In this document: positions 1 to 8,483 of the stretch, piece by piece | Layout: each line of letters starts with the position of its first letter | Numbering within the stretch: position 1 is the stretch's first letter | NCBI GenBank assembly: GCA_000002435.2 | Contig: AACB03000021.1 | Direction: 5' to 3' (one strand) | DNA: 8,483 nucleotides | From: Giardia intestinalis | Lineage: Eukaryota | Translations under genes and position numbers: made by a program | The notes under the pieces: model-generated | Databases searched by the model: none | Told to the model about the DNA's origin: nothing | What the model saw: only the letters and a program-made list of their open reading frames with translations

Positions 1-3000
1 GCAGCAAGAGGCGCCCGTCGAAGAACCTGAAGCGCCCGTTGAGGAGCCCGAGGAGCACGCCTTGCAGACCCCGCGGAGCCCGTCGAAGAACCTGAAGCGC
101 CCGTTGAGGAGCCCGAGGAGGCAGGCCTTGCAGAGCCCGCGGAGCCCGTCGAAGAACCCGAGCAGCAAGAGGCGCCCGTCGAAGAACCTGAAGCGCCCGT
201 TGAGGAGCCCGAGGAGGCACGCCTTGCAGACCCGCGGAGCCCGTCGAAGAACCTGAAGCGCCCGTTGAGGAGCCCGAGGAGGCACGCCTTGCAGAGCCCG
301 CGGAGCCCGTCGAAGAACCTGAAGCGCCCGTTGAGGAGCCCGAGGAGGCACGCCTTGCAGACCCGCGAGCCCGTCGAAGAAAACCTGAAGCGCCCGTTGA
401 GGAGCCGAGGAGGCACGCCTTGCAGAGCCCGCGGAGCCCCGTCGAAGAACCCGAGCAGCAAGAGGCGCCCGTCGAAGAACCTGAAGCGCCCGTTGAGGAG
501 CCCGAGGAGGCACGCCTTGCAGACCCGCGAGCCCGTCGAAGAACCTGAAGCGCCCGTTGAGGAGCCCGAGGAGGCACGCCTTGCAGAGCCCGCGGAGCCG
601 TCGAAGAACCTGAAGCGCCCGTGAGGAGCCCGAGGAGGCACGCCTTGCAGAGCCCGCGGAGCCCGTCGAAGAACCTGAACGCCCGTTGAGGAGCCCGAGG
701 AGGCACGCCTTGCAGAGCCCGCGGAGCCCGTCGAAGAACCCCGCAGCAAGAGGCCCGTCGAAGAACCTGAAGCGCCCGTTGAGGAGCCCGAGGAGGCACG
801 CCTTGCAGACCCGCGGAGCCCGTCGAAGAACCCGAGCAGCAAGAGGCCCGTCGAAGAACCTGAAGCGCCCGTTGAGGAGCCCGAGGAGGCACGCCTTGCA
901 GAGCCCGCGGAGCCCGTCGAAGAACCCGAGCAGCAAAGAGGCGCCCGTCGAAGAACCTGAAGCGCCCGTTGAGGAGCCCGAGGGAGGCACGCCTTGCAGA
1001 GCCCCGCGGAGCCCGTCGAAGAACCTGAAGCGCCCGTTGAGGAGCCCCGAGGAGGCACGCCTTGCAGGAGCCCGCCGGCGAGGCCCCGTCGAAGAACCTG
1101 AAGCGCCCCGTTGAGGAGCCCGAGGAGGCACGCCTTGCAGAGCCCGCGGAGCCCGTCGAAGAACCCGAGCAGCAAGAGGCGCCCGTCGAAGAACCTGAAG
1201 CGCCCGTTGAGGAGCCCGAGGAGGCACGCCTTGCAGAGCCCGCGGAGCCCGTCGAAGAACCCGAGCAGCAAGAGGCGCCCGTCGAAGAACCTGAAGCGCC
1301 CGTTGAGGAGCCCGAGGAGGCACGCCTTGCAGACCCCCGCGGAGCCCGTCGAAGAACCTGAAGCGCCCGTTGAGGAGCCCGAGGAGGCACGCCTTGCAGA
1401 GCCCGCGGAGCCCGTCGAAGAACCCGAGCAGCAAGAGGCGCCCGTCGAAGAACCTGAAGCGCCCGTTGAGGAGCCCGAGGAGGCACGCCTTGCAGACCCG
1501 CGGAGCCCGTCGAAGAACCCGAGCAGCAAGAGGCGCCCGTCGAAGAACCTGAAGCGCCGTTGAGGAGCCCGAGGAGGCACGCCTTGCAGACCCCGCGGAG
1601 CCCGTCGAAGAACCTGAAGCGCCCGTTGAGGAGCCCGAGGAGGCACGCCTTGCAGACCCGCGGAGCCCGTCGAAGAACCTGAAGCGCCCGTTGAGGAGCC
1701 CGAGGAGGCACGCCTTGCAGAGCCCGCGGAGCCCGTCGAAGAACCTGAAGCGCCCGTGAGGACCCGAGGAGCACGCCTTGCAGAGCCGCGGAGCCCGTCG
1801 AAGAACCTGAAGCGCCCGTTGAGGAGCCCGAGGAGGCACGCCTTGCAGAGCCCGCGGAGCCCGTCGAAGAACCCGAGCAGCAAGAGGCGCCCGTCGAAGA
1901 ACCTGAAGCGCCCGTTGAGGAGCCCGAGGAGGCACGCCTTGCAGAGCCCGCGGAGCCCGTCGAAGAACCCGAGCAGCAAGAGGCGCCCGTCGAAGAACCT
2001 GAAGCGCCCGTTGAGGAGCCCGAGGAGGCACGCCTTGCAGACCCCGCGGAGCCCGTCGAAGAACCCGAGCAGCAGAGGCGCCCGTCGAAGAACCTGAAGC
2101 GCCCGTTGAGGAGCCCGAGGAGGCACGCCTTGCAGACCCCGCGGAGCCCGTCGAAGAACCTGAAGCGCCCGTTGAGGAGCCCGAGGAGGCACGCCTTGCA
2201 GAGCCCGCGGAGCCCGTCGAAGAACCTGAAGCGCCCGTTGAGGAGCCCGAGGAGGCACGCCTTGCAGACCCGCGGAGCCCGTCGAAGAACCTGAAGCGCC
2301 CGTTGAGGAGCCCGAGGAGGCACGCCTTGCAGAGCCCGCGGAGCCCGTCGAAGAACCCGAGCAGCAAGAGGCGCCCGTCGAAGAACCTGAAGCGCCCGTT
2401 GAGGAGCCCGAGGAGGCACGCCTTGCAGACCCCGCGGAGCCCGTCGAAGAACCCGAGCAGCAAGAGGCGCCCGTCGAAGAACCTGAAGCGCCCGTTGAGG
2501 AGCCCGAGGAGGCACGCCTTGCAGACCCCGCGGAGCCCGTCGAAGAACCCGAGCAGCAAGAGGCGCCCGTCGAAGAACCTGAAGCGCCCGTTGAGGAGCC
2601 CGAGGAGGCACGCCTTGCAGACCCCGCGGAGCCCGTCGAAGAACCCGAGCAGCAAGAGGCGCCCGTCGAAGAACCTGAAGCGCCCGTTGAGGAGCCCGAG
2701 GAGGCACGCCTTGCAGACCCGCGGAGCCCGTCGAAGAACCCGAGCAGCAAGAGGCGCCCGTCGAAGAACCTGAAGCGCCCGTTGAGGAGCCCGAGGAGGC
2801 ACGCCTTGCAGACCCCGCGGAGCCCGTCGAAGAACCTGAAGCGCCCGTTGAGGAGCCCGAGGAGGCACGCCTTGCAGAGCCCGCGGAGCCCGTCGAAGAA
2901 CCCGAGCGCGAGGCGCCCGTCGAAGAACCTGAAGCGCCCGTTGAGGAGCCCGAGGAGGCACGCCTTGCAGAGCCCGCGGAGCCCGTCGGAAGAACCTGAA

Positions 3001-6000
3001 GCGCCCGTTGAGGAGCCCGAGGAGGCACGCCTTGCAGAGCCCGCGGAGCCCGTCGAAGAACCTGAAGCGCCCGTTGAGGAGCCCGAGGAGGCACGCCTGC
3101 AGACCCCGCGGAGCCCGTCGAAGAACCCCTCGGACCAGCGCCCGTTGAGGAGCCCGAGGAGGCACGCCTTGCAGACCCCGCGGAGCCCGTCGAAGAACCC
3201 GAGCAGCAAGAGGCGCCCGTCGAAGAACCTGAGCGCCCGTTGAGGAGCCCGAGGAGGCACGCCTTGCAGACCCCGCGGAGCCCGTCGAAGAACCCGAGCA
3301 GCAAGAGGCGCCCGTCGAAGAACCTGAAGCGCCCGTTGAGGAGCCCGAGGAGGCACGCCTTGCAGACCCGCGGAGCCGTCGAAGACCCGAGCAGCAAGAG
3401 GCGCCGTCGAAGAACCTGAAGCGCCCGTTGAGGAGCCCGAGGAGGCACGCCTTGCAGACCCCGCGGAGCCCGTCGAAGAACCCGAGCAGCAGAGGCGCCC
3501 GTCGAGAACCTGAAGCGCCCGTTGAGGAGCCCGAGGAGGCACGCCTTGCAGACCCGCGGAGCCCGTCGAGAACCCGAGCAGCAAGAGGCGCCCGTCGAAG
3601 AACCTGAAGCGCCCGTTGAGGAGCCCGAGGAGGCACGCCTTGCAGACCCCGCGGAGCCCGTCGAAGAACCCGAGCAGCAAGAGGCGCCCGTCGAAGAACC
3701 TGAAGCGCCCGTTGAGGAGCCCGAGGAGGCACGCCTTGCAGACCCCGCGGAGCCCGTCGAAGAACCCGAGCAGCAAGAGGCGCCCGTCGAAGAACCTGAG
3801 CGCCCGTTGAGGAGCCCGAGGAGGCACGCCTTGCAGACCCCGCGGAGCCCGTCGAAGAACCCGAGCAGCAAGAGGCGCCCGTCGAAGAACCTGAAGCGCC
3901 CGTTGAGGAGCCCGAGGAGGCACGCCTTGCAGACCCGCGGAGCCCGTCGAAGAACCTGAAGCGCCCGTTGAGGAGCCCCGAGGAGGCACGCCTTGCAGAG
4001 CCCGCGGAGCCCGTCGAAGAACCCGAGCAGCAAGAGGCGCCCGTCGAAGAACCTGAAGCGCCCGTTGAGGAGCCCGAGGAGCACGCCTTGCAGACCCCGC
4101 CGGGAGCGCCGTCGAAGAACCTGAAGCGCCCGTTGAGGAGCCCGAGGAGGCACGCCTTGCAGACCCGCGGAGCCCGTCGAAGAACCTGAAGCGCCCGTTG
4201 AGGAGCCCGAGGAGGCACGCCTTGCAGACCCCGCGGAGCCCGTCGAAGAACCTGAAGCGCCCGTTGAGGAGCCCGAGGAGCACGCCTTGCAGAGCCCGCG
4301 GAGCCGTCGAAGAACCTGAGCGCCCGTTGAGGAGCCCGAGGAGGCACGCCTTGCAGAGCCCGCGGAGCCGTCGAAGAACCCGAGCAGCAAGAGGCGCCGT
4401 CGAAGAACCTGAAGCGCCCGTTGAGGAGCCCGAGGAGGCACGCCTTGCAGACCCCGCGGAGCCCGTCGAAGAACCTGAAGCGCCCGTTGAGGAGCCCGAG
4501 GAGGCACGCCTTGCAGACCCGCGGAGCCCGTCGAAGAACCTGAAGCGCCCGTTGAGGAGCCCGAGGAGGCACGCCTTGCAGACCCCGCGGAGCCCGTCGA
4601 AGAACCTGAAGCGCCCGTTGAGGAGCCCGAGGAGGCACGCCTTGCAGAGCCCGCGGAGCCCGTCGAAGAACCCGAGCAGCAAGAGGCGCCCGTCGAAGAA
4701 CCTGAAGCGCCCGTTGAGGAGCCCGAGGAGGGCACGCCTTGCAGACCCGCGGAGGCCCCGTCGAAGAACCTGAAGCGCCCGTTGAGGAGCCCGAGGAGGC
4801 ACGCCTTGCAGAGCCCGGCGGAGCCCGTCGAAGAACCTGAGCGCCCGTTGAGGAGCCCGAGGAGGCACGCCTTGCAGACCCCGCGGAGCCCGTCGAAGAA
4901 CCTGAAGCGCCCGTTGAGGAGCCGAGGAGGCACGCCTTGCAGAGCCCGCGGAGCCCGTCGAAGAACCTGAAGCGCCCGTTGAGGAGCCCGAGGAGGCACG
5001 CCTTGCAGAGCCCGCGGAGCCCGTCGAAGAACCCGAGCAGCAAGAGGCGCCCGTCGAAGAACCTGAAGCGCCCGTTGAGGAGCCCGAGGAGGCACGCCTT
5101 GCAGACCCCGCGGAGCCCGTCGAAGAACCGAGCAGCAAGAGGCGCCCGTCGAAGAACCTGAAGCGCCCGTTGAGGAGCCCGAAGGAGGCACGCCTTGCAG
5201 ACCCCGCGGAGCCCGTCGAAGAACCTGAAGCGCCCGTTGAGGAGCCCGAGGAGGCACGCCTTGCAGAGCCCGCGGAGCCCGTCGAAGAACCCGAGCAGCA
5301 AGAGGCGCCCGTCGAAGAACCTGAAGCGCCCGTTGAGGAGCCCGAGGAGGCACGCCTTGCAGAGCCCGCGGAGCCCGTCGAAGAACCCGAGCAGCAAGAG
5401 GCGCCCGTCGAAGAACCTGAAGCGCCCGTTGAGGAGCCCGAGGAGGCACGCCTTGCAGACCCCGCGGAGCCCGTCGAAGAACCTGAAGCGCCCGTTGAGG
5501 AGCCCGAGGAGGCACGCCTTGCAGACCCGCGGAGCCCGTCGAAGAACCTGAAGCGCCCGTTGAGGAGCCCGAGGAGGCACGCCTTGCAGACCCGCGGAGC
5601 CCGTCGAAGAACCCGAGCAGCAAGAGGCGCCCGTCGAAGAACCTGAAGCGCCCGTTGAGGAGCCCGAGGAGGCACGCCTTGCAGACCCCGCGGAGCCCGT
5701 CGAAGAACCTGAAGCGCCCGTTGAGGAGCCCGAGGAGGCACGCCTTGCAGAGCCCGCGGAGCCCGTCGAAGAACCTGAAGCGCCCGTTGAGGAGCCCGAG
5801 GAGGCACGCCTTGCAGAGCCCGCGGAGCCCGTCGAAGAACCTGAAGCGCCCGTTGAGGAGCCCGAGGAGGCACGCCTTGCAGAGCCCGCGGAGCCCGTCG
5901 AAGAACCTGAAGCGCCCGTTGAGGAGCCCGAGGAGGCACGCCTTGCAGAGCCCGTCGAAGAACCTGAAGCGCCCGTTGAGGAGCCCGAGGAGGCACGCCT

Positions 6001-8483
6001 TGCAGAGCCCGCGGAGCCCGTCGAAGAACCTGAAGCGCCCGTTGAGGAGCCCGAGAGGCACGCCTTGCAGAGCCCGTCGAAGAACCTGAAGCGCCCGTTG
6101 AGGAGCCCGAGGAGGCACGCCTTGCAGAGCCCGCGGAGCCCGTCGAAGAACCTGAAGCGCCCGTTGAGGAGCCCGAGGAGGCACGCCTTGCAGAGCCCGT
6201 CGAAGAACCTGAAGCGCCCGTTGAGGAGCCCGAGGAGGCACGCCTTGCAGACCCGCGGAGCCCGTCGAAGAACCTGAAGCGCCCGTTGAGGAGCCCGAGG
6301 AGGCACGCCTTGCAGAGCCCGTCGAAGAACCTGAAGCGCCCGTTGAGGAGCCCGAGGAGGCACGCCTTGCAGAGCCCGTCGAAGAACCTGAAGCGCCCGT
6401 TGAGGAGCCCGAGGAGGCACGCCTTGCAGAGCCCGCGGAGCCCGTCGAAGAACCTGAAGCGCCCGTTGAGGAGCCCGAGGAGGCACGCCTTGCAGAGCCC
6501 GTCGAAGAACCTGAAGCGCCCGTTGAGGAGCCCGAGGAGGCACGCCTTGCAGAGCCCGCGGAGCCCGTCGAAGAACCTGAAGCGCCCGTTGAGGAGCCCG
6601 AGGAGGCACGCCTTGCAGAGCCCGTCGAAGAACCTGAAGCGCCCGTTGAGGAGCCCGAGGAGGCACGCCTTGCAGAGCCCGCGGAGCCCGTCGAAGAACC
6701 TGAAGCGCCCGTTGAGGAGCCCGAGGAGGCACGCCTTGCAGAGCCCGCGGAGCCCGTCGAAGAACCTGAAGCGCCCGTTGAGGAGCCCGAGGAGGCACGC
6801 CTTGCAGACCCCGCGGAGCCCGTCGAAGAACCCGAGCAGCAAGAGGCGCCCGTCGAAGAACCTGAAGCGCCCGTTGAGGAGCCCGAGGAGGCACGCCTTG
6901 CAGACCCGCGGAGCCCGTCGAAGAACCTGAAGCGCCCGTTGAGGAGCCCGAGGAGGCACGCCTTGCAGAGCCCGCGGAGCCCGTCGAAGAACCTGAAGCG
7001 CCCGTTGAGGAGCCCGAGGAGGCACGCCTTGCAGAGCCCGCGGAGCCCGTCGAAGAACCTGAAGCGCCCGTTGAGGAGCCCGAGGAGGCACGCCTTGCAG
7101 ACCCGCGGAGCCCGTCGAAGAACCCGAGCAGCAAGAGCGCCCGTCGAAGAACCTGAAGCGCCCGTTGAGGAGCCCGAGGAGGCACGCCTTGCAGACCCCG
7201 CGGAGCCCGTCGAAGAACCTGAAGCGCCCGTTGAGGAGCCCGAGGAGGCACGCCTTGCAGAGCCCGCGGAGCCCGTCGAAGAACCCGAGCGCAAGAGGCG
7301 CCCGTCGAAGAACCTGAAGCGCCCGTTGAGGAGCCCGAGGAGGCACGCCTTGCAGAGCCCGCGGAGCCCGTCGAAGAACCTGAAGCGCCCGTTGAGGAGC
7401 CCGAGGAGGCACGCCTTGCAGACCCCGCGGAGCCCGTCGAAGAACCCGAGCAGCAAGAGGCGCCCGTCGAAGAACCTGAAGCGCCCGTTGAGGAGCCCGA
7501 GGAGGCACGCCTTGCAGAGCCCGCGGAGCCCGTCGAAGAACCCGAGCAGCAAGAGGCGCCCGTCGAAGACCTGAAGCGCCCGTTGAGGAGCCCGAGGAGG
7601 CACGCCTTGCAGAGCCCGCGGAGCCCGTCGAAGAACCTGAAGCGCCCGTTGAGGAGCCCGAGGAGGCACGCCTTGCAGACCCCGCGGAGCCCGTCGAAGA
7701 ACCCGAGCAGCAAGAGGCGCCCGTCGAAGAACCTGAAGCGCCCGTTGAGGAGCCCGAGGAGGCACGCCTTGCAGACCCGCGGAGCCCGTCGAAGAACCCG
7801 AGCAGCAAGAGGGCCCGTCGAAGAACCTGAAGCGCCCGTTGAGGAGCCCGAGGAGGCACGCCTTGCAGACCCGCGGAGCCCGTCGAAGAACCTGAAGCGC
7901 CCGTTGAGGAGCCCGAGGAGGCACGCCTTGCAGAGCCCGCGGAGCCCGTCGAAGAACCCGAGCAGCAAGAGGCGCCCGTCGAAGAACCTGAAGCGCCCGT
8001 TGAGGAGCCCGAGGAGGCACGCCTTGCAGACCCCGCGGAGCCCGTCGAAGAACCTGAAGCGCCCGTTGAGGAGCCCGAGGAGGCACGCCTTGCAGAGCCC
8101 GCGGAGCCCGTCGAAGAACCTGAAGCGCCCGTTGAGGAGCCCGAGGAGGCACGCCTTGCAGAGCCCGCGGAGCCCGTCGAAGAACTGAACGCCCGTTGAG
8201 GAGCCCGAGGAGGCAGCCTTGCAGAGCCGCGGAGCCCGTCGAAGAACCTGAAGCGCCCGTTGAGGAGCCCGAGGAGGCACGCCTTGCAGACCCGCGGAGC
8301 CCGTCGAAGAACCTGAAGCGCCCGTTGAGGAGCCCGAGGAGGCACGCCTTGCAGACCCCGCGGAGCGTCGAAGAACCTGAAGCGCCCGTTGAGGAGCCCG
8401 AGAGGCACGCCTTGCAGACCCGCGGAGCCCGTCGAAGAACCTGAAGCGCCCGTTGAGGAGCCCGAGGAGGCACGCCTTGCAGA
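1..8483 (+). CDS. Internal fragment (no start, no stop) of a putative giant acidic Pro/Glu-rich tandem-repeat protein with repeat PVEEPEAPVEEPEEARLA[E/D]PAE, with or without the PVEEPEQQEA pre-insert. As given, the frame is interrupted by many 1-nt indels, so this may be a pseudogene or an error-containing read.
   Basis: The core consists of three 18-nt sub-repeats (cccgtcgaagaacccgag / cccgtcgaagaacctgaa / cccgttgaggagcccgag). These differ only at positions 6, 9, 12, 15 and 18, which are the third codon positions of this frame, so all three encode PVEEPE. Almost all unit-length variants are multiples of 3 (57, 66, 96, plus 27-nt inserts and +3/+6 core variants). The longest clean stretch in this frame is about 6261-6913 (about 217 codons). 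A minus-strand Ser/Gly-rich frame (SAGSARRASSGSSTGASGSSTG) shares the same wobble positions and cannot be excluded. Confidence 0.4.
240..305. repeat. Reference canonical 66-nt unit (core 240-293, linker gagcccgcggag 294-305)
   Basis: Read directly from the sequence. The adjacent unit 175-239 is the 65-nt variant with linker gacccgcggag at 229-239. Confidence 0.9.
1067..1090. other. Divergent linker island 'ggagcccgccggcgaggccccgtc' replacing the canonical 'gagcccgcggagcccgtc'
   Basis: Direct comparison with the canonical unit. This is the local maximum of irregularity in the indel-rich 5' part of the window. Confidence 0.6.
2344..2822. repeat. Run of five consecutive insert-bearing units (96, 96, 96, 95, 96 nt), each being the 30-nt pre-insert plus core plus D-type linker
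   Basis: Units fall at 2344-2439, 2440-2535, 2536-2631, 2632-2726 (CCC linker at 2716-2726) and 2727-2822. Each begins with cccgtcgaagaacccgagcagcaagaggcg. Confidence 0.85.
3128..3140. other. Unique 13-nt segment 'cctcggaccagcg' replacing the canonical 7-nt 'tgaagcg' inside a core (net +6 nt, in-frame)
   Basis: This is the only place in the window where the core sequence is substituted rather than changed by a 1-nt indel. In the PVEEPE frame it reads EEPLGPAPVEE instead of EEPEAPVEE. Confidence 0.6.
5696..6818. repeat. Insert-free sub-domain of 18 units lacking the 30-nt pre-insert. It contains all nine 57-nt units, alternating with 66-nt units as a 123-nt higher-order repeat (5894-6674).
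   Basis: The 'gag' short linkers lie at 5948-5950, 6070-6072, 6193-6195, 6315-6317, 6372-6374, 6495-6497 and 6618-6620. Full linkers interleave at 6005-6016, 6127-6138, 6429-6440, 6552-6563 and 6675-6686. No 'cagcaagagg' pre-insert occurs between 5624 and 6818. Confidence 0.85.

Follow-up and report, generated by a model that had tools for sequence, protein, structure and literature searches.

The window, the whole 8483-nt stretch of DNA analysed here, is in its entirety a single tandem array in which the reading frame is broken roughly 100 times, and these breaks are very probably residual long-read sequencing/assembly or low-coverage consensus errors that are not part of the organism's DNA. 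The frame breaks look like an ordinary matter of sequencing or assembly error rather than biology, and the analysis serves mainly as a caution. Annotation of the contig in its present form would yield a series of short fragments, a pseudogene or a spurious antisense open reading frame (ORF) of 2827 codons, the last because the minus strand contains zero stops in all three frames, and each of these would be wrong. Were the indels real, the array would be a giant repeat gene that had only just lost its function, and the interest of such a finding would be modest.

Array architecture and coding frame

The array is built from in-frame modules of 66, 96 and 57 nt, corresponding to 22, 32 and 19 residues, and TRF reported periods of 66, 96, 123 and 162. 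The segment census showed that these module lengths and the differences between them (30 and 9 nt) were all multiples of three. The main features are listed below.

1-8483, + strand: tandem array of about 111 modules, extending past both ends of the window (TRF, segment census and graph parse)
66-nt module: EPVEEPEAPVEEPEEARLA[E/D]PA
96-nt module: the 66-nt module plus 30 nt, with the extra residues EPVEEPEQQEA
57-nt module: the 66-nt module minus 9 nt
2421-3990, + strand: two runs of 96-nt modules, 2421-2803 and 3167-3924 (module order with coordinates)
5941-6667, + strand: region to which all seven of the seven 57-nt modules are confined (segment census and module order)

Three kinds of variant were present in multiple copies and in frame, namely the Glu/Asp linker (E and D forms), the 30-nt insert and the 9-nt deletion. 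They were clustered or linked to adjacent modules and look inherited, and every variant that had clearly spread across the array preserved the reading frame. Linkers following the 96-nt module runs (2421-2803 and 3167-3924) were of the D form or a one-base-shorter form in 12 of 12 cases and of the E form in 0 of 12; the final linker among those 12 begins the 66-nt module at 3925-3990. The 9 nt missing from the 57-nt modules (CCCGCGGAG) are located between two GAGCCCG direct repeats, and their removal results in the in-frame loss of Pro-Ala-Glu. The 57-nt and 66-nt modules mostly alternate, giving a 123-nt higher-order repeat that TRF reported as period 123 over 5825-8483. The 57-nt module is thus an inherited variant with local spread.

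When the indels were removed, the window yielded one acidic frame of 8526 nt with 0 stops, about 2840 aa long, whose repeat peptides are AEPVEEPEAPVEEPEEAR and LADPAEPVEEPE. EPVEEPE and APVEEPE, the two subrepeats, are separated by 6 base differences; 5 of these fall at third positions and are synonymous in the acidic frame only. Because of this, and because all module lengths are multiples of three, the acidic frame is the one under selection. The basic + strand frame (SPSKNLKRPLRSPRRHALQSPR) and the in-register antisense frame (RGLCKACLLGLLNGRFRFFDGL) were also considered as coding, because third positions are 100% GC in both. Both were rejected, as the subrepeat differences are non-synonymous in the other + frames and, with codons read by eye, in the antisense frame.

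As written, the longest + strand start-to-stop ORF was 645 nt (6286-6930), in agreement with an earlier reading of the sequence only, which had put the upper limit at about 650 nt. With two of the unit's three + frames open, the + strand had stop-free stretches of up to 449 codons. Searches of Pfam returned nothing for the acidic frame and just sub-threshold or repeat-driven noise for the other frames; the sole nominal match over its cut-off was Phage_holin_4_1 (24.7 versus 22.2 bits), in an artificial antisense translation. Rfam gave 0 matches.

The array could also be regarded as a non-coding satellite, perhaps descended from a coding repeat; the frame would then be meaningless, and variants of 65, 66, 95 and 96 nt would coexist. 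The window is purely repeat with no flanks, no protein family matches any frame, and with all three minus frames and two + frames open, open frames alone prove little. We nevertheless consider a satellite highly improbable, as it does not account for modules of 66, 96 and 57 nt that differ by 30 and 9 nt, all multiples of three, or for subrepeat divergence that is synonymous at five of six positions in one frame only. Moreover, the sole common substitution is Glu/Asp, acidic repeats of the PVEEPE type exist in real proteins, and indel-only, one-off changes would still resemble errors even in a satellite.

Spectrum and distribution of the edits

The whole window was aligned as a graph to five in-frame canonical modules, and the alignment gave 8450 matches, 2 substitutions, 31 insertions and 74 deletions. 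The ratio of indels to substitutions was therefore 105:2; if half of real mutations were substitutions, two or fewer among 107 would have a probability of 4e-29. We counted about 80 frame-shifting events, 93 codon-level switches of the acidic frame and 84 sporadic edits. The sequence-only reading had underestimated these numbers (about 70 frame breaks and about 50 sporadic changes), while its statement that substitutions were almost absent was borne out and the sporadic examples that it quoted (at about 55, 380, 414, 438 and 623) are visible in the sequence.

The sporadic edits are nearly all one-offs, prefer base runs and lean towards deletion. In the segment census the edited units were almost all unique, and only 2 sporadic-edit variants were seen twice, one of them at the distant positions 1776 and 8217. 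Runs of two or more bases contained 41 of the 51 sporadic deletions, compared with 51% of the bases (p=1.5e-5), and 27 of 31 insertions extended an adjacent run, compared with 44% expected (p=7e-7). The deletion rate per run was 0.24% at single bases, 2.0% at runs of 2, 3% at C3 and 43% (23/54) at C4. The earlier claim that run lengths alone were altered therefore holds as a bias beyond chance and fails as a rule, since there were also 10 deletions at single bases, 4 isolated insertions and several garbled bursts.

1068-1087, + strand: garbled burst with six inserted bases (GGAGCCCGCCGGCGAGGCCCCGTC)
3128-3136, + strand: garbled burst with six inserted bases (CCCCTCGGACCAGCGCCC)
4101-4108, + strand: garbled burst with three inserted bases
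1-2000, + strand: noisy 2 kb containing 34 sporadic edits (per-kb counts)
6251-6903, + strand: longest edit-free stretch, 653 nt, with a short linker at each end

Furthermore, the sporadic edits were clumped, at 19, 15, 5, 16, 15, 2, 1 and 4 per kb (Poisson dispersion p=2e-6), with 31 in 3001-5000 versus only 7 in the 3 kb of 5001-8000. Within the longest edit-free stretch, 6252-6902 translates to 217 aa of acidic repeat without interruption. The cleanest region is also where the array looks youngest, and the uneven edit density alone could consequently also reflect copy age.

Phase-variable contingency loci, which act by slipped-strand mispairing, likewise show one-base run-length changes that shift the frame. 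Such loci have a single long tract, typically of at least 7 bases, near the 5′ end of the gene, whereas the roughly 100 changes found here are scattered over runs of 1-4 bases and the longest run is C4, with C5 seen once.

We also weighed whether all of the approximately 105 indels might be real mutations that accumulated after loss of function of a repeat gene, leaving a decayed pseudogene. Such decay would fit the + strand ORFs, all of 645 nt or less as written, and the finding of no intact homologous protein in very large collections. This explanation is extremely improbable. Every spontaneous mutation spectrum known to us runs the other way from the 2 substitutions versus 105 indels seen here (p<1e-28), neither substitution has created a stop codon, and the indel-free frame has no stops. 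In addition, multi-base garbled bursts and strong clumping suit read quality and not decay, and the edits are one-offs although the array clearly continued to duplicate blocks. The suggestion in the sequence-only reading of a decayed pseudogene or a non-coding satellite is accordingly disfavoured by the scarcity of substitutions, the module lengths in multiples of three and the synonymous subrepeat divergence.

Collectively, these patterns show how, even without reads, error can be told from inheritance within a tandem array: an inherited variant is multi-copy, in frame, and clustered or linked to its neighbours, whereas errors are one-offs, nearly all indels, run-favouring and clumped. We propose that the window is the interior of a very long, recently homogenised tandem-repeat coding region, the protein of which would be extremely acidic and rich in Glu, Pro and Ala, with no fewer than about 2840 residues in pure repeat. 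The approximately 105 one-base indels would be leftovers of a long-read single-molecule assembly or of a low-coverage consensus. As the contig is all repeat, reads would lack a unique register and polishing would probably fail. One component of the error would be random noise, comprising the 84 run-favouring, deletion-leaning edits and concentrated in what may be poorly supported stretches.

Long-read consensus is known to retain homopolymer indels that frameshift genes (PMC9262707). Repeats, where reads cannot be placed reliably, are especially prone to keep such errors (PMC8812927, PMC12007338). The window resembles the residual indels of nanopore or PacBio CLR consensus assemblies (PMC9262707, PMC8812927, PMC12007338) in being nearly all indel, run-length-dependent and deletion-leaning, with one ORF split into many and with errors left in repeats to which polishing reads cannot be assigned uniquely. 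It differs in that the runs here are of 2-4 bases, whereas longer homopolymers are usually the most affected, and in that a 43% miscall at C4 needs an added, array-specific cause. The counts, the error spectrum, the coding frame and the linkage of the real variants were established here, whereas we infer the platform. Of the long-read and flow-based errors that had been suggested, the former is best supported by the 105:2 ratio, the run dependence, the excess of deletions over insertions, the clumping with garbled bursts and the one-offs, and only this version is plausible, because a flow-based short-read platform could not assemble an 8.5-kb near-identical array.

Origin of the short linker

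Exact linker counts were 29 for GACCCCGCGGAG (D form), 21 for GACCCGCGGAG (short form) and 44 for GAGCCCGCGGAG, with C5 found once, GAGCCGCGG twice and GAGCCCCGCGG once. The earlier figures of about 29 D-type and about 21 short copies thus proved exact, and the five short-linker positions quoted with them were all correct.

229-239, + strand: one copy of the short linker GACCCGCGGAG, which lacks one base; the window has 21 exact copies and 2 more with an additional deletion nearby
Starts of the short linker, + strand: 229, 808, 1495, 1655, 2267, 2716, 3365, 3551, 3932, 4162, 4516, 4744, 5524, 5589, 6250, 6903, 7100, 7774, 7868, 8289, 8417
Linker-spanning forms: GCAGACCCCGCGGAG, GCAGACCCGCGGAG (the short form) and GCAGAGCCCGCGGAG

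The short linker GACCCGCG is one edit away from the D form, by loss of a C, and equally from the E form, by loss of a G; the opposite chimera, GAGCCCCGCG, occurred once. Its earlier description as a CCC/CCCC polymorphism of the D linker was therefore an assumption, although one that the statistics favour. Judged by the module types upstream of it, the short linker could derive from the D form (Fisher p=0.38), whereas derivation from the E form only, by deletion, was rejected (p=0.010). Consistently, the short form takes D positions inside the 96-nt module runs. The copy at 6250 is an exception, as it lies in the 57/66 higher-order repeat, where E and not D is expected. Linker state was linked to the type of the upstream module (chi-square p=1.3e-4), which lies more than 60 nt upstream, and this observed linkage ruled out the E/D difference as a base-calling artefact. 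Compensating indels beside the short linkers were ruled out as well, eleven 65-nt units being otherwise perfect.

Unlike the sporadic edits, the short linker had a flat density along the window (4, 2, 2, 3, 3, 2, 2 and 3 per kb), and the per-kb counts over the whole window showed no correlation with local noise. In the cleanest 3 kb (5001-8000) it kept its share of D-type sites, with 7 short versus 8 D; a constant share of D sites in clean and noisy parts is also expected of a real variant. No clustering was detected, with only 2 short-short neighbours (clustering p 0.95-0.98).

The likeliest explanation for the short linker is a systematic miscall at the C4 run of the D linker (GAC CCC GCG), the array's only four-base run. 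Because its frequency is independent of local noise, a systematic cause is needed, unlike for random errors. From about 3% at C3 to 43% at C4 the rate also climbs more sharply than homopolymer under-calling normally would in a consensus of good coverage, so an extra mechanism is needed, for which we propose a mixed pile-up or modification. This second component of the error would leave about 43% of Asp-linker copies short at any local quality. We infer that the Glu-type (GAG CCC) and Asp-type (GAC CCC) units, being otherwise identical, might cause reads to pile up together. A consensus that votes base identity and run length separately could then call 'no G' and 'three C', and the short form would be the intersection of both real alleles. 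The miscall could also stem from modification of the overlapping CCGCGG site.

Alternatively, the 84 sporadic indels could be errors and the short linker a real 1-nt deletion allele, carried to about 22% of the units by unequal exchange or gene conversion; the array would then be either a gene that was inactivated recently or a repeat whose translation no longer gives one long protein. A flat density independent of local noise would be in keeping with this, and the short linker is the sole out-of-frame change in many copies. It follows 66-nt modules 10 times and 96-nt modules 12 times, a distribution between those of D and E, as a third allele might show, and the apparent error jump from C3 to C4 is unusually steep. 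We still regard this combination as unlikely. The short linker is found at the array's only four-base run, precisely where a run-length miscall is most expected, and the surrounding sequence carries about 1% indel error. It is unclustered, whereas the 57-nt module, a variant that did spread, forms one local block; in the 96-nt module runs it replaces D like a random subset; and all other spread variants are in frame. A real short linker would mean that concerted evolution had spread a frame-breaking allele to about one-fifth of a giant acidic repeat gene's units, an improbable outcome in our judgement, with the gene just dead or, less likely, the array read in alternating acidic and basic frames.

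Relatives of the encoded repeat

No independent copy or related locus was found in genome, metagenome, viral, plasmid, phage or protein collections. A 50-mer taken from the unit core had no exact occurrence in the genome, viral and metagenome contig collections, and blastn and tblastn gave no matches to plasmids and phages. Word-indexed protein searches found nothing for the acidic frame and one chance-level match only for the minus-strand translation; exact-product look-ups of that translation and of the longest + ORF returned no record, and no paper turned up when literature text was searched for the peptide motifs. Degenerate peptide scans gave just two composition-driven matches, L001 (a Clostridia MAG, 53% identity) and L002 (49%). 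The underlying gene would encode an orphan protein of more than 2800 residues made of near-identical 22/32-residue Glu/Pro repeats, with no relative among about 15 billion predicted proteins, and we consider this more probably true than a real short linker.

In a full HMMER search of 1.84 billion representatives the best E-value was 2e-10, and the matches were to PVEEPE linkers of a generic kind, carried by unrelated proteins. The array shares (E/A)PVEEPE motifs, extreme acidity and a tandem layout with the acidic Pro/Glu 'PVEEPE' linker repeats of bacterial surface and secreted proteins, examples of which are P0001 (S-layer SbsC and CarboxypepD_reg domains), P0007 (Big_4 domain) and the Clostridia MAG locus L001. 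In contrast to the array, these linkers have periods of 6-8 residues, span fewer than 200 residues and belong to low-GC genomes, and none has a 22-residue unit with EEARLA(E/D)PA. The relationship is one of resemblance and not homology, and the best E-value is composition-driven.

Repeat array and its coding frame

The window has a G+C content of 69%, and a single array of head-to-tail repeats fills it completely. It begins within a module and stops within a linker, so that no unique flank is present. When it was cut at the anchor CCTTGCAG, a small set of clean segments was obtained, with the following modules and subrepeats.

Modules and subrepeats of the array (+ strand)
66-nt module, first part: GAG CCC GTC GAA GAA CCT GAA GCG CCC GTT GAG
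66-nt module, second part, continuing the first: GAG CCC GAG GAG GCA CGC CTT GCA GA[G/C] CCC GCG
96-nt module: the 66-nt module with a 30-nt insert, which contributes EPVEEPEQQEA
57-nt module: the 66-nt module minus the 9 nt CCCGCGGAG
Subrepeat a: GAG CCC GTC GAA GAA CCT GAA, read as EPVEEPE
Subrepeat b: GCG CCC GTT GAG GAG CCC GAG, read as APVEEPE

The 66-nt module translates as EPVEEPEAPVEEPEEARLA[E/D]PA, and the three module lengths and both length differences are all divisible by three. Open frames carry no information in this array: two of the unit's + frames are open, and all three minus-strand frames run through the 8.5 kb free of stops. Third-position G+C was 100% in the basic + frame and in the in-register antisense frame, and a frame-plot method would favour frames of this kind. 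We found that the unit is built of diverged 21-nt subrepeats. Of the six bases at which subrepeats a and b differ, five occupy third codon positions in the acidic frame, the + strand frame reading the Glu/Pro-rich repeat; these five are synonymous in that frame and change the amino acid in the other + frames. Two further third-position differences, again synonymous, separate the insert copy from subrepeat a. These synonymous differences, with the lengths divisible by three and the conservative Glu/Asp exchange, single out the acidic frame as the one on which selection acted, the internal subrepeat evidence being decisive. What the window really contains is a tandem-repeat coding region of giant size and with a very acidic product, in which the real variants are the Glu/Asp linker polymorphism, the 30-nt insert and the 9-nt deletion. 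Its product would be about 41% Glu, 23% Pro and 18% Ala, and Pfam and Rfam returned nothing meaningful for any frame. The codon choices might hint at a moderately G+C-rich microbe as the source.

The + strand unit is without TTA, CTA and TCA, which is why the minus strand is stop-free in three frames, and automated gene calling would probably predict a false antisense ORF of some 2827 codons over the window. An artificial antisense translation of the consensus modules, rich in Leu, Phe and Cys, matched Phage_holin_4_1 at 24.7 bits (Pfam cut-off 22.2); we attribute this score to the repeated hydrophobic pattern and regard it as an artefact, not a real domain.

Three multi-copy variants keep the frame, namely the E or D linker (GAG CCC or GAC CCC), the 30-nt insert and the 57-nt modules. 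Linkers following a 66-nt module were D in 9 cases, E in 35 and short (one base fewer) in 10, and those following a 96-nt module were D in 21, E in 9 and short in 12. Linker state depended on the upstream module type, more than 60 nt away (chi-square p=1.3e-4), and the downstream module type had no link to the Glu/Asp state (p=0.74), so that the natural evolutionary unit has the linker at its end rather than at its start. No base-calling context effect is known to act over more than 60 nt, and the E/D state is therefore inherited variation. The other two variants were grouped along the array.

Blocks of variant modules (+ strand)
3167-3924: eight 96-nt modules in succession, an example of the runs in which the 30-nt insert occurs
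5941-6667: contains 7 of 7 57-nt modules, arranged for the most part in alternation with 66-nt modules and so forming a 123-nt higher-order repeat

The confinement of the 57-nt modules to one block is evidence of recent local amplification in the array. The 9 nt absent from them lie between two GAGCCCG direct repeats, as is typical of a slippage deletion. The cleanest part of the window is also where block 5941-6667 lies.

Sporadic edits

For the alignment of the whole window, five canonical modules in frame (66E, 66D, 96E, 96D and 57E) were joined into a cyclic graph, and mismatches and gaps cost the same. The alignment contained 8450 matches, 2 substitutions, 31 insertions and 74 deletions; 23 deletions fell at the linker site, and the other 84 edits, termed sporadic, elsewhere. 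The frame is shifted in about 80 events, and at codon level the acidic frame switches 93 times. The longest start-to-stop + ORF was 645 nt, and removal of the edits gave an 8526-nt sequence with 0 stops in the acidic frame. The sequence-only reading had the linker counts exactly (GACCCCGCGGAG 29, GACCCGCGGAG 21, GAGCCCGCGGAG 44) and quoted correct coordinates, and its estimates of about 70 breaks and 50 sporadic changes were both somewhat too low. It had described the changes as homopolymer-length changes. A run bias was indeed found, since 41 of 51 sporadic deletions lay in runs of at least two, where 51% of bases lie (p=1.5e-5), and 27 of 31 insertions extended an adjacent run (p=7e-7), but not all edits alter run length, the exceptions being ten deletions of single bases, four insertions standing alone and three garbled bursts.

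Garbled bursts (+ strand)
1068-1087: first burst
3128-3136: second burst
4101-4108: third burst

Nearly all sporadic edits were one-offs with substitutions almost absent, and they numbered 19, 15, 5, 16, 15, 2, 1 and 4 in successive kb (Poisson dispersion p=2e-6). Real new mutations are mostly substitutions, and at most two among the 107 edits would have p=4e-29 if half of real events were substitutions; a block-duplicating array would also be expected to carry real mutations along into copies. One-off occurrence, near-zero substitutions and uneven spread point to errors of sequence determination. These one-off, indel-only, clumped edits support long-read sequencing error, the explanation originally preferred, as the source of the sporadic frame breaks, which would then be no biological feature and of low interest. 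Mutation spectrum and codon-phase evidence both speak against the alternatives raised with it, a decayed pseudogene or a non-coding satellite derived from a coding repeat. Residual frameshifting homopolymer indels are a known signature of long-read consensus sequences (PMC9262707), and two further reports describe them as surviving above all in repeats, where placement of the polishing reads fails (PMC8812927, PMC12007338). A flow-based short-read origin of the contig was ruled out, because 8.5 kb of near-identical units can be spanned only by single-molecule long reads.

Recurrent short linker

A single edit separates the short linker GACCCGCG from the D form GACCCCGCG (C lost), and likewise from the E form GAGCCCGCG (G lost), the aligner having assigned it to E by tie-break only. 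Its density along the window was flat (4, 2, 2, 3, 3, 2, 2 and 3 per kb) and unrelated to local sporadic-edit density (Mann-Whitney p=0.24 and 0.49), and in the cleanest 3 kb it still made up 7 of the 15 linkers that were not E. The short linker therefore lies outside the random noise, leaving systematic miscalling and a real allele as its two possible origins. A real allele would fit this even, noise-independent density, but we consider it quite improbable, as short linkers are unclustered (only 2 short-short neighbours), are the only multi-copy variant breaking frame and sit at the array's only four-base run. The apparent deletion rate was 0.24%, 2.0%, 3% and 43% for runs of 1, 2, 3 and 4 bases. 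By upstream module type the short linkers were distributed as random thinning of D would allow (Fisher p=0.38), and all 12 linkers that followed modules in the 96-nt runs were D or short, none of them E. Systematic miscalling of the D form is the favoured origin. Derivation from E alone was rejected, the upstream-module split being incompatible with it (p=0.010).

The step from 3% to 43% between runs of three and four exceeds ordinary under-calling in steepness. E-type and D-type units are otherwise identical, and we infer that their reads may have been superimposed. A consensus deciding base identity and run length separately could then yield 'G absent' and 'three C', giving the short form as the intersection of the E and D alleles. 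Under such a mixed pile-up the reciprocal chimera GAGCCCCGCG would be expected to be rare; it occurred once. The short linker at 6250 stands where the 57/66 higher-order repeat predicts E. A CCGCGG (SacII) palindrome overlaps the variable C run in every 66-nt and 96-nt module linker (98 sites), and its modification could disturb base calling and contribute to the short form. The 57-nt modules are without CCGCGG and carry the E form in 7 of 7.

Search for relatives

The 50-nt unit core was absent from genome, viral and metagenome contig collections, and plasmid and phage searches at the DNA and protein levels gave no match. A word-indexed protein search found none for the acidic frame and one chance-level match (E=5.7e-4) for a minus-strand translation. 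Exact-product look-ups of a minus-strand translation and of the longest + ORF found no record, and the repeat motifs did not occur in the searchable literature. Among 1.84 billion cluster representatives scanned in full with HMMER, the best E-value was 2e-10, the matches being short PVEEPE-type linkers in unrelated proteins with S-layer, Big_4, GTPase or LPXTG-anchored protease domains. As no independent copy was found in the contig, plasmid, phage and protein collections searched, the array is an orphan. Peptide-pattern scans gave composition-level matches only, L001 and L002. The former (L001 7033-7389, Clostridia MAG JAZQOX010000012.1) is on a low-GC contig ending in an (EAPAEPVEEP)n repeat preceded by a coiled-coil-like N-terminal region; its motif is convergent with that of the window, but unit and composition differ.
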